64,000 nt of DNA, taken from Alphaproteobacteria bacterium. GTDB taxonomy: Bacteria; Pseudomonadota; Alphaproteobacteria; MPNO01. Of this stretch, positions 400 through 46,585 are shown piece by piece. Every line of letters begins with the position of its first letter. The first letter of the stretch is position 1. The stretch spans positions 288,001 to 352,000 of the forward strand of contig OZ219866.1 of the NCBI GenBank assembly GCA_964291675.2, written 5' to 3'. Under the pieces are notes generated by a model. The model was not told the DNA's origin, made no database searches, and saw only the letters and a program-made list of their open reading frames with translations. Made by a program: the position numbers and the translations under genes.

Positions 400-2790
400 A
401 TGCGGTTTAGACGGCGGCGCGGCTTCAGATCCTGGCTGCGGCGGATCGCGGCGGCCCTCGCGGTTCTCGCGGTCGCGGTCGTCGGCGGTGCCTATCTGCT
501 GCTCGAATCGGCGCGGCCGCAAACCGAGGGAACGATCGAGCTCGCCGGGCCGAGCGCGCCGGTTTCGATCCTGCGCGATCGCTACGGCATCCCGCGCATC
601 GCCGCCCGGAACGAGCGAGACGCTTATTTCGCCCTGGGCTATGTCCATGCCCAGGACCGTTTCTTCCAGATGGAGTTCATGCGCCGGCTGGGCGCCGGAC
701 GCCTGTCGGAGGTCGTGGGATCGTCGACCCTGTCGATCGATCGCTGGATGCGCGTGCTCGGTCTCTACCGCCTGGCCGAGGCCTCGCTGAACCGGCTCTC
801 CCCGCAGGTCGTCGACGGCCTCGAAGCCTATGCCGACGGGGTCAACGCCTATCTCGACTCCCATTTCGGGCTGGTCTCGGTCGAGCTCGCGATCATGCTG
901 ACGGTGCCGGAGAAATGGCGCCCGGCGGATTCGCTGGTCTGGGGGCGGCTGATGGGAATGCGGCTGTCGGGCAATTCGCATGCCGAGACGCTGCGCGCCC
1001 GGCTCTCCGACCTTCTGCCGCCCGAACGTGTCGACGAGCTGTGGCCCGACATCGCCCGCGACGCGCCGCCGACGATTTCGGCGCTCGGCCGGGCGGGCCG
1101 GTTCCCGTCGCTGTTCGCGGACTGGCCCGCGGCGATCGCGCCGGTCACCGCTTCGAACGTCTGGGCGGTCTCGGGATCGCAAACCGCATCCGGCCGCCCG
1201 ATCCTCGCCAACGACCCCCATCTCGGTTACCGCGCGCCGGGGCTGTGGTACCTGGCGCGGATCGAGACCCCGGGCCTGACGCTCGTCGGAGCGACCGTGC
1301 CGGGCGTTCCGATGACCATACTCGGCCATAACGGGTCGATCGCCTGGGGCCTGACGACCACGGACAGCGATACCCAGGACCTGTTCCTGGAGCGCGTCGA
1401 TCCCCTGGACCCGAACCGCTACCTGACCCCCGAAGGATCGCTTCCCTTCGGCATGCGGGTCGAACGGATCGGGGTGCGGGGCGGCGAGGACGCGACGCTC
1501 GTCGTGCGCTCGACGCGGCACGGGCCGGTGATTTCGGATGTCGACGAGAAAGCCGCGGGCATCGCCGGCTCGGGCCATGTGGTGGCCCTCGCCGCGGCGG
1601 CGCTCCGCGAAGACGACATGACCGGGGAGGCGGTCTGGCGGCTCAACCGGGCGCGCGGCTGGGAGGACTTCAACGCGGCGCTCGCCTCGTTCCACGCGCC
1701 GCATCAGAACGTCGTCTATGCCGATACCGCCGGCAATATCGGAATCGTCGCGCCCGGGCGGGTGCCGATCCGGCGGGCGGGCGACGGGCTCTACCCGGTG
1801 CCGGGATGGACCGGGGAGCACGACTGGACGGGGTTCATCCCCTATCCCGAGCTGCCCCGCCTCTTCAACCCGGCGAGCGGGCGCATCGTCAACGCCAACC
1901 ACCCGGTGGTCGGTCCCGACTACCCCTATCGCCTCGGCCACGGGGACACCCCGCATTACCGGGCGACGCGGATCCACGCGCTGCTCGATTCCGGCGGATC
2001 GCGGACCCCGGCCGGAGCGGGCGCGATGCAGAACGACTCGGTCTCCCTCGCCGCCCGCGAGCTGCTGCCGGAGATGCTGCGCGTGGTGCGCGAGACCGAC
2101 CCGCGGTCGGGCGCGGTCGGGCGGCTGCGCGCGTGGGACGGCACGATGGATCGGCGCCGGGCGGAGCCCCTGATCTTCGTGGCCTGGCTGCGCGCGCTCA
2201 ACCGCCGCCTCTACGGCGACGAGACCGGCGAGGTGTTTGAGGATATGTGGCGGCTCAGACCGGTATTCGTGCGCCGGACGCTGGAGCGCGGCGCCGCCTG
2301 GTGCGACGACGTCGCCACCCCCGCCCGCGAGACCTGCGGCGAAATCGTCGGCGCGGCGCTCGACGACGCGCTCTCCGAGCTCCGCGCACGGTTCGGCGAC
2401 GACCTGGCCGATTGGCGCTGGGGCGACGCCCATTACGCGCATTTCCGCCACCCGGTTTTCGGCTGGTTGCCGGTCATCGAGCGCATCGCCGACATCCGCG
2501 TCCCGGCCGATGGCGGCGCGTTCACCGTCAACCGCGGGCAGCACCGCTCCGCCCGCGACGACGCGCCCTATGCCAGCGTCCACGGCGCGGGTTACCGCGC
2601 GGTCTACGACCTCTCCGATCTCGACCGCTCGCTGTTCATCCAGGCGACCGGGCAGTCCGGGCACCTGACATCGCCGCACTATCGCGACCTCACACCGCTT
2701 TGGCGGGACGGGGTCTTCCTCACCCTCGGCCCGATCGCCGCCGACGCCGATGAAGCGATCAGCCTGCTTACCCTGATGCCGCGCCGGTGA
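400..2790 (+). CDS. Penicillin acylase family (Ntn hydrolase) protein
   Basis: N-terminal TM segment, RDRYGIPRI, GYVHAQDRFFQME, nucleophile motif ASNVWAV, LANDPHL, GQSGH. Confidence 0.92.
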   Translation: MRFRRRRGFRSWLRRIAAALAVLAVAVVGGAYLLLESARPQTEGTIELAGPSAPVSILRDRYGIPRIAARNERDAYFALGYVHAQDRFFQMEFMRRLGAGRLSEVVGSSTLSIDRWMRVLGLYRLAEASLNRLSPQVVDGLEAYADGVNAYLDSHFGLVSVELAIMLTVPEKWRPADSLVWGRLMGMRLSGNSHAETLRARLSDLLPPERVDELWPDIARDAPPTISALGRAGRFPSLFADWPAAIAPVTASNVWAVSGSQTASGRPILANDPHLGYRAPGLWYLARIETPGLTLVGATVPGVPMTILGHNGSIAWGLTTTDSDTQDLFLERVDPLDPNRYLTPEGSLPFGMRVERIGVRGGEDATLVVRSTRHGPVISDVDEKAAGIAGSGHVVALAAAALREDDMTGEAVWRLNRARGWEDFNAALASFHAPHQNVVYADTAGNIGIVAPGRVPIRRAGDGLYPVPGWTGEHDWTGFIPYPELPRLFNPASGRIVNANHPVVGPDYPYRLGHGDTPHYRATRIHALLDSGGSRTPAGAGAMQNDSVSLAARELLPEMLRVVRETDPRSGAVGRLRAWDGTMDRRRAEPLIFVAWLRALNRRLYGDETGEVFEDMWRLRPVFVRRTLERGAAWCDDVATPARETCGEIVGAALDDALSELRARFGDDLADWRWGDAHYAHFRHPVFGWLPVIERIADIRVPADGGAFTVNRGQHRSARDDAPYASVHGAGYRAVYDLSDLDRSLFIQATGQSGHLTSPHYRDLTPLWRDGVFLTLGPIAADADEAISLLTLMPRR

Positions 2791-26644: not shown

Positions 26645-26796
26645 CCCCGTCGCGGCCGGCCCCCGGATCGAGTCCGGGGGCGATCCCGCCATCCATGCGG
26701 CCTCTCCGGCGGCGAGGCGGCCGGTCGGGAGGGATGCCGGCGCCCGTGGATGCCCGGAACAAGTCCGGGCAAGACGGGGTGGGGACGGGCATGACG
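26645..26796. repeat. REP-like palindromic element, family A (degenerate)
   Basis: Contains cccggatcgagtccggg, ccatgcggcctct and gatgcccggaacaagtccgggca, similar to copies at 40234 and 46369. Confidence 0.65.
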
Positions 26797-26842
26797 GCTT
26801 GGGGGAGGCCCGGGCTTTCCGCCTCGCTCCGCGCCGAATGTC

Positions 26843-40036: not shown

Positions 40037-40420
40037 CGCGGCGGTAATGACAGCCGACCGTCCCGGGGTCCAGCGAAATCGCCCGCGTCCTTCGATACGC
40101 CTCCAAGTCGTCATGCCTGGCTGCCGGAACGAATCCGGCGGTGTTCCGCTGCCGTCCGGTCTGGATTTTCGGCGCGGGCTCCACGGCATGAACGAGACCG
40201 TCTCCGTTCCCCCTCTTATCGGCCCTGTACCCTCGTCATGCCCCCCCAATCGTCATGCCCGGACTTGATCCGGGCACCCATGCAGCCTCTCGGCGCGCAC
40301 GGCGGCCGGGCGGGAAAGGTGTTGGCGGCAGTGGGTGCCCGATGGAGTGGACGCCCCCTCCGACGGCATCTGTGTGCCAAAGTGGCGGTGTCATCAACCC
40401 ACTTGGAGGAGGGAGCATCC

Positions 40421-41452
40421 ATGGCCGAGGTTAGCATGATCGGGATCGATCTTTCGAAGCGGAGTTTTCAGCTGCACGGGATGTGCGCGGACGGCTCGGT
40501 GGGTTTCCGCCGGACGCTGAGCCGCGGCAGGCTGCTCGCCTTTCTGGCGCGTCAGCCGCGCTGCGTGGTGGCGATGGAGGCGTGCGGGGGCGCGCATCAC
40601 TGGGGTCGCGAGATCCTCGATCTGGGCCATGAGGTGCGGCTGGTGCCGCCGGTCTATGTGAAGCCCTTCGTGAAGCGCCAGAAGAACGATGCGGCGGATG
40701 CGGCGGCGATCTGCGAGGCGGCGTCGCGGCCGACCATGAGCCTGGTTGCGGTGAAGACGGCCGAGCAGCAGAGCCGCGGCATGCTGTTCCGGGTGCGCGA
40801 TCTCCTGGTGCGCCAGCGCACCCAGGCGCTCGACGCGCTGCGCGGCCATCTGGCGGAGTTCGGGCTGGTGGCGCCGAAGGGTCCGGCGAGTGTCGGCAAG
40901 CTCGCGGTGGCGCTGGAGGCTGCGCGGGCCGGTCTGCCGGACCGGGTGGGCGAGCTCGCCGGGGTGCTGCTGGAGCAGATCGCCGGGCTGGACGAACAGG
41001 TCGCCGAGCTCGACAAGGAGCTGCGCGCCGAGGCGCGGCGGGATGCGGATGCGCGCCGGCTGATGACCATACCGGGGGTCGGGCCGGTCACCGCGATGGC
41101 GATCCAGGCCTTCGCGCCGCCGCTCGACGGGTTCCGCCGCGGGCGCGACTTCTCGGCCTGGCTCGGGCTGGTGCCGCGCCAGCACACGACGGCCGGCAAG
41201 CCGCGGCTGGGCAGGATATCGAAGATGGGCCAGCGCGATCTCAGGCGGCTCCTGGTGCTCGGCGCCATGTCGGTGGTCCGCAGCGCCGGGCGCCACGACA
41301 CGGTGCGCGACCCGTGGCTGGCCGGGATGCTGGCCACCAGGAAGCCGAAGAAGCTGATCGCCGTGGCGCTGGCCAACCGCACCGCGCGCATCGCCTGGGC
41401 GATGACCACGAGACAGCAGAGCTACCGGGCGCCCGCGCCGAACACCGCCTGA
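40421..41452 (+). CDS. IS110 family recombinase/transposase
   Basis: DEDD RuvC-like motifs IGIDLSK, MEACG, KNDAADA; C-terminal IPGVGP, WLGLVP, RISKMG. Confidence 0.95.
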   Translation: MAEVSMIGIDLSKRSFQLHGMCADGSVGFRRTLSRGRLLAFLARQPRCVVAMEACGGAHHWGREILDLGHEVRLVPPVYVKPFVKRQKNDAADAAAICEAASRPTMSLVAVKTAEQQSRGMLFRVRDLLVRQRTQALDALRGHLAEFGLVAPKGPASVGKLAVALEAARAGLPDRVGELAGVLLEQIAGLDEQVAELDKELRAEARRDADARRLMTIPGVGPVTAMAIQAFAPPLDGFRRGRDFSAWLGLVPRQHTTAGKPRLGRISKMGQRDLRRLLVLGAMSVVRSAGRHDTVRDPWLAGMLATRKPKKLIAVALANRTARIAWAMTTRQQSYRAPAPNTA

Positions 41453-41700
41453 GCGCGGCGGATGCGGGCCGCCGTCGGCAGTGCGGGCGAGGTCTGAGGA
41501 CGGGTAAGGACAAACGGTCGATGAGACGGGATCGGGAAAACCAGTTTGATCCGGCGCGCCGAAGAGCACGCGTGCCCGATTTGGACCCGATCCGCGTATG
41601 CCATACAGGCCCGCGGCGCCGCATAGGCCGCAAGCAGAGGCCGCATAGACGACAGCACCTGACCGCACTGTCCGAACCGTTCGAAAAAAACCTTGCACCG
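41453..41700 (+). ncRNA. Putative bridge/seek RNA of the IS1111-type element
   Basis: Stem GGATCGGG/CCCGATCC enclosing TTGATCCG (41546-41553) and GTGCCCG (41572-41578), matching the target; CATAGACGA (41644-41652) matches the circle junction; RNA ends unknown. Confidence 0.8.
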
Positions 41701-41786
41701 CCGGGGGCGTCCATAGACGGATCAAGTCCGGGCATGACGATCGGGGGCCATGACGGGTTGCGGGAAGGGCGCGGCCGGAGGGGCCG

Positions 41787-42740
41787 CTACGCGGGATCAG
41801 GGGCGGGCGACCGGTGCGTTTGCCGCGCGGCTTCGCCGCGCACCCAGTCGCGGAACGCCCTGACCCCGGGCCGCTCCAGCGCGCCGGGCGCGGTGCAGAG
41901 CACGTAGGAGGCGGGCGCGGGAACGCCGCTGCCGAAGAGCGGAACCAGAGCCCCCCGTTCGAGCTCGTCGGCGATCATCCTGGCATGGCCGAGGGCGACC
42001 CCCATGCCCTCGACCGCCGCCCGCACGGTCATGCTGTGCGACTGGAAGCCGGAGGCGAGGGAGAGGTCGGCCGGGGCCGCGCCGTGATGCGCGAACCAGT
42101 ACGCCCAGTGGGGCGCCCAGCCGAGGTCGTAGAGCAGCGGCCAGCGGTGCAGGTCGTGCGGCTCCGCGGGGCGGGCGTGCCGGCGCAGCAGCGCCGGACT
42201 GCATACCGGAACCAGCGTCTCCTCGAACAGCGTCTCGCAATCGGGGGCCGCGTCGACCCGGTCGGTGAAGGCGATCCACGCATCGAAGTCCCGCTGCGCC
42301 GGGGCGAAGGCGCCGCGGTCGGTCTCCACCTCGACGGCCAGATGGGGGTGGGCGGCCTTGAAGCCGGGCAGCCGCGGCGTCAGCCATTTCTCCGCCACCA
42401 CCTCGACCGCGACGAGCTTGAGCCGTGGCTCCCGGCCGCCGTTGCGCAGCCGGGCGTTGGCCTGGCGCAGACCGGTCAGCAGGCGCCGAACGTCCTCCAG
42501 ATAGGCCTCGCCCTCGGCGGTCAGCCGAACGCCCTGGCTGTGACGGGTGAACAGCGCTACGTCGAGACACCGCTCCAGGCACTTGACGCGATAGGCGATG
42601 GCGGCCGCGGTGATGCCGAACTCCGAGCCGGCCGCGACGAAGCTCCCGAGGCGCGCCGCCGCTTCGAAGAAGGGCAGCGTATCCAGCACGCGCGAATCGG
42701 GCGGTTGCGTCTTCGGCGGGATCTGCGAGGGGCCGTGCAA
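41787..42740 (-). CDS. LysR family regulator (GcvA-like)
   Basis: FEAAARLGSF HTH, LFTR..VRLTAEG, substrate-binding domain; start uncertain. Confidence 0.9.
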   Translation of the reverse strand: MHGPSQIPPKTQPPDSRVLDTLPFFEAAARLGSFVAAGSEFGITAAAIAYRVKCLERCLDVALFTRHSQGVRLTAEGEAYLEDVRRLLTGLRQANARLRNGGREPRLKLVAVEVVAEKWLTPRLPGFKAAHPHLAVEVETDRGAFAPAQRDFDAWIAFTDRVDAAPDCETLFEETLVPVCSPALLRRHARPAEPHDLHRWPLLYDLGWAPHWAYWFAHHGAAPADLSLASGFQSHSMTVRAAVEGMGVALGHARMIADELERGALVPLFGSGVPAPASYVLCTAPGALERPGVRAFRDWVRGEAARQTHRSPAPDPA

Positions 42741-46250: not shown

Positions 46251-46585
46251 GGGGCTTATCCAGATTACTTGACGGAGCGGGGGCCGGGCGTCACGGGGGG
46301 CGGCGCGCCCGCCGGCGATCCCCGGCGTCGCGCCCGAACGTCGGAACGCTCGCCATGCCTCCCCACCTCGTCATGCACCCCCCGTCATGCCCGGACTTGA
46401 TCCGGGCACCCATGCGGCCTATCGGCGCGCACGGCGGGCCGTGGGGAGGCGTGGCGGCGCCGGTGGGTGGCCGGATCAAGTCCGGCCATGGGTGCCCGAA
46501 TCACCCCCGGACTCGATCCGGGGGCCGGGCATGACGGAAGAAGTGTCGTTGGCGTCCCGCCCGGCAAGTATTCGGTATAAGCCCC
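46251..46585. mobile_element. MITE with GGGGCTTAT terminal inverted repeats and 8-bp target duplication CTTCGATA
   Basis: GGGGCTTAT 46251-46259 and ATAAGCCCC 46577-46585, imperfect pairing to about 30 bp; CTTCGATA at 46243-46250 and 46586-46593. Confidence 0.8.
46369..46535. repeat. Family A REP-like element (uninterrupted) inside the MITE
   Basis: cgtcatgcccggacttgatccgggcacccatgc..ccggatcaagtccggccatg..gccgggcatgacg. Confidence 0.85.

Follow-up and report, generated by a model that had tools for sequence, protein, structure and literature searches.

How does an insertion sequence (IS) find one fixed point in a repetitive extragenic palindromic (REP) hairpin that its host carries in hundreds of copies? 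This question is raised by a transposase gene and its surroundings in a stretch of 64,000 nucleotides (the window; C2:288001-352000) from an Alphaproteobacteria bacterium, whose genome comprises 2 contigs and 4.81 Mb at 69% G+C and is 93.7% complete. We consider it very probable that the locus is an intact IS of the IS1111 group, with a recombinase guided by an RNA that the element itself encodes in its 3' non-coding region. A sequence-only reading of the window had proposed an IS1111-type element programmed against the palindromic repeat of the host. That proposal is borne out: guides in a covarying scaffold match both half-sites of the target, and all four genomic copies sit there. The coordinates of the features are collected in Table 1.

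A BLAST search against the element's own genome returned four full copies (A, the window copy, and B, C, and D), all on contig C2. Their alignment with 160 bp of flank sets the IS at 1378 bp, window positions 40342-41719 on the plus strand, with one flanking CG counted. Because CG stands at either junction (40340-41 and 41718-19), the boundaries may equally be placed 2 bp away, at 40340-41717. The left junction reads ...TGCC-CG/ATGGAG-TGGACGCCCCC..., and the right junction ...GGGGGCGTCCA-TAGA-CG/GATCAAGTCCGGGCATGACG; the element is inserted into the right arm of an inverted REP doublet and splits that arm. The range first flagged, 40234-41755, is therefore the IS together with the host repeat that it interrupts. 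An IS does lie there, but the left part of the range, 40250-40341, belongs to the host repeat and should be annotated as such. Three positions distinguish A from B, and one of these is the opening base of the top-strand guide. C and D, which have the same sequence, differ from A by three substitutions, one extra A, and an 18-bp deletion.

The transposase frame is open in all four copies, and its 343-aa product scores above cut-off for both IS110-family Pfam domains, the N-terminal DEDD (RuvC-like) domain PF01548 and the C-terminal domain PF02371. Residues D10, E53, D90, and D93, which we take to be the DEDD residues, are invariant across six aligned proteins (the element and five relatives). 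The subterminal inverted repeats are complementary over 11 of 11 bp (40348-40358 versus 41703-41713), and the non-coding DNA amounts to 79 nt upstream of the gene (40342-40420) and 267 nt downstream (41453-41719). As described for the IS1111 group, transposases are 330-350 aa long, subterminal inverted repeats measure about 11-13 bp, the longer non-coding region lies 3' of the transposase gene, and the C-terminal motif is GL-P----S/T-G, occasionally with TA (PMC11187229); Durrant et al. give 7-17 bp for the inverted repeats (PMC11208160). The motif found here, GLVPRQHTTAG, is the rarer TA form, and the consensus of the relatives has TTGG. The element agrees with the group in the features compared, terminal extensions (12 bp versus 10) excepted. 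In assembled contigs of run X1, depth was about 62 on the IS and about 15 on its flanks, a ratio that fits four IS copies. Among the assembled contigs of four public runs (X1, X2, X3, and X22), which break at repeats, no contig spans the IS and no joint skips exactly the IS.

All four copies sit at the same position of a REP arm, ..TGCC-CG/IS/GATCAAGTCCGGGCATGACG, and their flanks beyond the repeat differ. Copies in sequence unrelated to the repeat were to be taken as evidence against targeting; none was found among the four. The anatomy of the element and the identity of the site in every copy are matters of direct observation. To the left of the window copy stands CGTCATGCCCGGACTTGATCCGGGCAC, followed by a spacer of about 65 bp, and to the right the rest of an inverted copy, together forming an inverted REP-hairpin doublet. 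The sequence has the marks of a REP, being a short imperfect palindrome in hundreds of copies with inverted doublets among them: 383 hairpins in the genome match NNNNC[CG]GGANNNAGTCCGG, and 67 inverted doublets have their hairpins 40-160 bp apart. Around the insertion point, the 383 hairpins fall into the 13-base classes GTGCCCGGATCAA (64), GTGGCCGGATCAA (64), GCCCCCGGATCAA (45), ATGGCCGGATCAA (40), and ATGCCCGGATCAA (36), plus rarer ones. RAYT transposases define REPINs; a Y1/RAYT transposase (PF01797) was not found in this genome at its 93.7% completeness, and control genomes gave matches.

The exact 13-mer GTGCCCGGATCAA, which joins the two half-sites, has 67 unoccupied genomic copies, followed in 63 of them by GTCCGGGCATGAC. 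About 0.17 copies are expected from composition, so the match is not due to chance. The empty targets reported earlier for the window were found again, both on the minus strand (40265-40277 and 46397-46409), as was the intact relative at 46369-46489: the interrupted repeat matches window positions 46366-46473 with 84.8% identity over 112 bp in a BLAST comparison. The 13-mer itself had been named as the target. Its positions are right, but as a definition it is too strict, because the left half-site is GTGCC-CG in three copies and ATGCC-CG in copy D. In the site of copy D the first base is changed, and the G of the guide RNA can wobble with the T of the bottom strand. The wobble-compatible target [AG]TGCCCGGATCAA has 118 unoccupied copies in the genome.

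The choice of arm within a doublet is in line with the guides. The doublets of B, C, and D have ATGGCCGGATCAA as their other arm, which is one change away from D's own site, at the second base before the core; of the two arms of these mixed doublets, one compatible and the other not, the IS occupies the guide-compatible one in three of three cases. A second, empty, fully matching arm (40265-40277, minus strand) exists only in the doublet of the window copy. All four insertions fall in the [AG]TGCC class, to which 100 of the 383 hairpins belong; the chance of this is about 0.005-0.01, which is suggestive, not strong. In the window, adjacent REP hairpins of different subclasses (GCCC, GGCC, and CCCC stems) form a cluster of three at 46369-46560 and a cluster of two at 26650-26800. 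The GCCC arm at 46397-46409 is the sole guide-compatible arm in these two clusters.

Could the REP arms belong to the mobile unit itself, either derived from the IS ends in the manner of a miniature inverted-repeat transposable element or carried along as a repeat, with the target an artefact of a misplaced boundary? BLAST of the IS with its flanks does run about 100 bp into the left repeat in all four copies, and the left repeat parts of B and C are identical. However, the joined half-sites occur exactly in 67 uninterrupted hairpins, and the REP shows no relation to the subterminal repeats TGGACGCCCCC. The left repeat part shared by B and C is about 80% like its counterpart in A, and D has yet another version. 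The shared flanks also recur at empty sites, for example C2:862021/862022, where the left and right flank modules meet. This explanation is extremely unlikely, and the arms are better regarded as host repeat into which the IS was inserted.

The sequence-only reading had further supposed that the recombinase could rearrange the genome between repeat copies. Inversion or deletion of chromosome segments between REPs would be in keeping with reports that bridge recombinases are programmable for inversion and excision (PMC11208160), and with the presence of 118 compatible sites in both orientations, including a second compatible arm 83 bp from the IS in one doublet. Yet the reaction in the published accounts joins a donor, namely the joined IS ends, to a target (PMC12288879, PMC11208160, PMC13626964); two empty REP arms are two targets and therefore fall outside it. 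The flank similarities between copies are those of larger host repeats, which are present at empty sites too, and no contig joint ties the flanks of this site to another repeat copy, a weak point given that contigs break at repeats. The supposition was not upheld, and we regard such rearrangement as quite unlikely. Flank sharing was also considered as a trace of IS-mediated rearrangement and rejected: the right 178 bp shared by C and D are found at four more loci, and the left part of B at many.

The long 3' non-coding region was compared with that of relatives from two sources: 41 related genomes, which contributed 30 loci, and a species-level genome collection, from which the best 80 of 607 matches (53-75% protein identity) were taken. 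These 3' regions align as a fixed scaffold with variable blocks. RNAalifold predicted five helices from 63 distinct sequences, with compensatory changes in 17 of 23 pairs and pairing in 97.5% of cells; none of 500 shuffles reached these values, and slid controls were 27-42% paired. Compensatory changes occur in eight of eight pairs of helix P1 and four of four of P3, and the single-sequence fold recovers P1 and P2. The variable blocks of the target-binding module hold two guides, which overlap on CCG in the target. Copy B has the top-strand guide CUUGAUCCGG, in which its C lengthens the Watson-Crick pairing to 10 nt. The seekRNAs described for the IS1111 group have the top-strand match first and the bottom-strand match second, overlapping in the target (PMC11187229), and the order here is the same. 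An Rfam search of 40200-41800 gave no family for this RNA; a sub-threshold chance match lay inside the transposase gene on the opposite strand.

If the blocks are guides, they should change with the flanks of the elements that carry them. From 82 aligned 3' regions, 66 with ends were obtained, 53 of them confident, and 38 were non-redundant when collapsed by the right-flank 6-mer; 4 were dropped as gapped in guide columns, 12 because no right end was found within 2 mismatches, and 13 for uncertain ends or short flanks. Among the 38 relatives, the bottom-strand guide matches the left flank at a mean of 5.5 of 9 positions, compared with 2.5 in permuted sets (maximum 3.14 in 1000 permutations). 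The match rate is 79-97% at positions -1 to -5 and falls to 16-32% at positions -6 to -9; this indicates that the bottom-strand guide reads about five bases and the core. The top-strand guide, scored in a free register with permutations treated alike, matches the right flank at 6.24 of 8 positions versus 3.98 permuted (maximum 4.42). The core dinucleotide itself varies among relatives (CG, TG, or AG). The core at the left junction equals that at the right end in 33 of 37 elements, the right-end core itself being taken from the right-end guide, and the bottom-strand guide shows the same dinucleotide in the alignment rows (by eye, uncounted). The final seven nucleotides of the element are those of the right-end guide in 45 of 45 non-redundant relatives, which have 12 different 7-mers between them; this result is partly circular in that the ends were located via the guide. 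The covariation within the scaffold and between guides and flanks is seen directly in these alignments.

The pairing positions also account for the variant arms in the window, GTGGCCGGATCAA at 46467-46479 and ATGCCCGGAACAA at 26750-26762, which had been said to mismatch the guides. They do so at positions that are kept paired in 79-97% of relatives. The GTGGCC arms (46467) alter position -2 of the left half-site, paired in 97%, and the GAACAA arms (26750) alter position +3 of the right half-site, paired in 83%. ATGCC alters position -5, and copy D shows that ATGCC is used.

A sister IS in a genome of the same genus (G004) provides a second target for comparison. It has at least 16 full-length copies there and 72% protein identity. 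In nine of nine copies examined it stands at GGAACAAGTC-CG/GGCATGA, a point 8 bp farther on in a hairpin of the same kind. It shares the scaffold of the present element, and its guide blocks are altered to UCAUGUGCGG and GAAGUC-CG, of which the bottom-strand guide fits the sister's own site perfectly. The present genome holds 126 copies of the sister-type site AAGTCCGGGCATGA. In another genome of the genus (L004 in G008), on the reverse-complement strand 3' of the transposase stop, the right end of the sister, ..GTCCACACACG, directly abuts a second copy of its own 3' region, which begins at ATTTGGACCC, just past the bottom-strand guide core. Either a partial tandem or insertion into guide-coding DNA resembling the left half-site could account for this arrangement.

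Recognition of structure is the older idea for REP-targeting ISs. Applied to this element, it would have the transposase recognise the REP hairpin through its DNA structure or through contacts between protein and DNA, and the matches found in the 3' region would be incidental, arising from past insertions or from the palindromy of the site. The insertion site does lie within a hairpin-forming repeat, the guides are short (7 and 9-10 nt), and the two target guides pair with each other in the single-sequence fold. Against this, the guides covary with the flanks on an unchanging scaffold in the 38 non-redundant relatives, many of them with targets other than REPs; the sister IS occupies another position of the same hairpin with guides altered correspondingly; and in the IS1111 experiments, as published, the RNA was required and could be reprogrammed (PMC11187229). 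Structure recognition is therefore very unlikely, and guidance by RNA is preferred.

In the course that we propose, the RNA from the 3' non-coding region would fold into two modules. In the loop of the first, UUUGAUCCGG would pair with C-CG-GATCAA of the top strand and GUGCC-CG with the bottom strand, the two guides together defining the site [G/A]TGCC-CG-GATCAA, which lies within the 5' half of the REP hairpin stem. In the second, CAUAGACGA would match the IS's own right end across the circle junction. By analogy with published relatives, the IS most likely excises as a circle, and the RNA would be expressed and bound by the recombinase; the complex would then exchange strands at the shared CG core, leaving CG on both sides. 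Since the host hairpin is present in hundreds of copies, about 118 free landing sites would be available in repeats and not in genes. It is plausible that the repeat serves as a safe harbour for the IS, as the sequence-only reading suggested; this idea has already been published. REPs were reportedly presented as IS targets by Tobes and Pareja in 2006.

Several points weigh against this interpretation. Expression of the RNA, its binding by the transposase, and its requirement for transposition are predictions drawn from published relatives. Helix P3 contains a C-A mismatch (41557/41568) that is unique among the 63 sequences, and the single-sequence fold has the two target guides paired together. 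The left-end guide block is one base shorter than in the relatives (TAT-GCCAT versus TATCTCCAT, 41599-41600), and the left-end guide is not separable from permutation (5.0 versus 4.77), because the relatives show almost no variation at the left end. Since they share ancestry, the relatives are also less independent than the permutation figures imply. Pairing need not be strict, given that the sister's top-strand guide pairs with its own site with one wobble and one mismatch. Depending on how the CG core is assigned, the terminal extensions measure 6 to 8 bp (left) and 6 to 4 bp (right); their total of 12 bp compares with 7 (or 6) bp left and 3 bp right in the published description of the group (PMC11187229), and they are asymmetric under one CG assignment only.

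The 18-bp deletion in C and D removes part of the predicted RNA. Without P1 and P2, the deleted RNA has a minimum free energy of -41.6 kcal/mol (z 0.16), compared with -54.3 kcal/mol (z -1.49) for the intact RNA. C and D stand at different loci with different left flanks, which can be read in three ways: the deleted form moved with RNA of the A/B type, it is still functional, or the deletion spread by gene conversion. A broader scheme may be put forward tentatively, and we hold it to be possible but doubtful. In it, the genus would have seen a small radiation of IS1111 elements, their guides drifting along one REP hairpin (GTGCC-CG-GATCAA here, AAGTC-CG-GGCATGA in G004), with repeat and guide co-evolving, and C and D would be a non-autonomous 'guide-dead' lineage moved by trans RNA from intact copies.

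In run X3 (metagenome), a 1237-nt contig contains a relative of the IS that differs at 36 positions over 533 nt (window 40332-40864). The match starts at 40332 and includes the left half-site TGGGTGCCCG, and the preceding sequence is unrelated; in all probability another organism has here acquired the IS independently, at an identical left half-site. In contigs of the RNA run X22, a T is inserted after 41600, and these contigs probably derive from a relative. As for expression of the element itself, a scan of its linear form for sigma-70 promoters and terminators found none, the circle-junction promoter being judged by eye only. TTGCAC near the right end may have a promoter role of the kind published for IS110/IS1111 circles (PMC12288879), and CTTGC is kept at the same distance from the end among the relatives' alignment rows listed.

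Other IS110-family elements occur in the genome. A second, different one lies outside the window, 170 bp from copy C (L111, G000:C2:2998090-3000500, about 487-2250). Its open reading frame (700-2082, plus strand) has PF01548 and PF02371, and it has 8 genomic copies of at least 1.9 kb. Its junctions, ..TAAACCG/TCATGG.. and ..GCAAACCG/GACAGCAGTGG, indicate that its insertion point, too, is fixed within a host repeat, a short way upstream of a REP hairpin. A 315-bp repeat module, found at L111 172-486 and at about 20 more loci of C1 and C2 with 94-98% identity from locus to locus, exists independently of the second IS. It is followed by AAACCGGACA..CAGTGG and a REP hairpin, and the same AAACCGGACAGCA motif is found 5' of REP hairpins in the related genome G004. 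A partial third IS110-family frame (L026, G000:C2:1586310-1587065) is 40% identical to the transposase of the window element over residues 5-255 of the latter.

Table 1. Features of the IS locus and of its host repeat, in window coordinates.
Feature	Position	Strand	Basis or location
IS1111-group IS, 1378 bp	40342..41719	+	Four copies aligned with flanks; empty sites
Left arm and spacer of the interrupted doublet; ends in GTGCC (40335-40339) and core CG (40340-40341)	40250..40341	+	Alignment with empty repeats and the three other occupied copies
Unoccupied exact target GTGCCCGGATCAA, left arm of the same doublet	40265..40277	-	
Left subterminal inverted repeat TGGACGCCCCC, after the 6-nt extension ATGGAG	40348..40358	+	Sequence; conserved in relatives
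DEDD transposase/recombinase gene, 343 aa	40421..41452	+	Pfam PF01548 (E 1.4e-12), PF02371 (E 2.6e-22)
Predicted target-binding module: P1 (41529-36 with 41586-93), P2 (41541-42 with 41583-84), P3 inner hairpin (41556-59 with 41566-69), internal loop with both target guides	41529..41593	+	
Predicted top-strand guide UUUGAUCCGG, complementary to target C-CG-GATCAA	41545..41554	+	5' side of the P2-P3 internal loop
Predicted bottom-strand guide GUGCC-CG (41572-78, equal to the top strand), then AU, the first two bases of the IS left end	41572..41580	+	3' side of the loop
18 bp absent from C and D; 3' strands of P1 and P2 lost	41577..41594	+	Copy alignment
Predicted donor-binding module: P4 (41608-11 with 41639-42; 41613-17 with 41627-31), candidate left-end guide GCCAU (41600-04), right-end guide CAUAGACGA (41644-52)	41595..41653	+	
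Conserved TTGCAC, possible -35 box of a promoter formed only in the joined-end circle	41693..41698	+	
Right subterminal inverted repeat GGGGGCGTCCA, then TAGA and core CG	41703..41713	+	Sequence; copy alignment
Right half-target GATCAA and rest of the REP right arm (GATCAAGTCCGGGCATGACGA)	41720..41740	+	
Uninterrupted doublet relative; left arm is an empty exact target (46397-46409, minus strand), right arm the incompatible GTGGCC variant (46467-46479)	46369..46489	+	

The element adds nothing to the mechanism known for such ISs; it is a well-resolved natural case. One genome offers 4 occupied, 118 compatible empty, and about 265 near-miss sites, a panel on which the mismatch and wobble tolerance of an IS1111 guide RNA can be assessed. 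The sister element forms with it a natural reprogramming pair on the same scaffold, and the 18-bp-deleted copies are a natural test case for trans action of the RNA.

Among the systems already described, ISPa11, an IS1111 element of Pseudomonas aeruginosa, targets the REP of its host, and its seekRNA co-purified with the transposase (Siddiquee et al. 2024, PMC11187229). The present element resembles it in the IS1111-type DEDD transposase, the long 3' non-coding region, the top-strand match followed by a bottom-strand match that overlaps it in the target, and insertion at one fixed position of a multicopy host REP. It differs in host and in REP sequence, the two elements being compared by description.

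IS621, of the IS110 group in Escherichia coli, is said to have been found by Choi et al. in 2003 to target the REP of that host. As described, it has separate target- and donor-binding loops, a shared core dinucleotide, and a host REP target (Durrant et al. 2024, PMC11208160; Hiraizumi et al. 2026, PMC13626964), all of which have their likeness here. IS621, however, has its RNA upstream of the gene, its guides in the opposite order, and subterminal repeats of only 2-3 bp, whereas the downstream RNA and 11-bp repeats found here are features of the IS1111 group. Durrant et al. report a bridge RNA predicted in the right end of 93% of IS1111 elements (PMC11208160). ISPpu9 and ISPpu10 of Pseudomonas putida KT2440 are likewise multicopy IS110-family elements with every copy in a REP, hundreds of REPs in the host, and recombination at a shared dinucleotide (PMC12288879). 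Unlike the present element, ISPpu9 belongs to the IS110 group, lacks inverted repeats, and has the extra small RNA modules Asr9 and Ssr9, nothing similar to which was seen here. The pair formed with the G004 sister has a parallel in ISEc11 and ISXne4, which have 72% identical transposases, shared RNA stems, and differing guides and targets (PMC11187229); unlike in that pair, the two targets here belong to a single REP hairpin family in one genus and are separated by 8 bp. In sum, REP-targeting IS110/IS1111 elements with guide RNAs have been known from publications since 2024, and the element in the window is another example, ordinary but clean.

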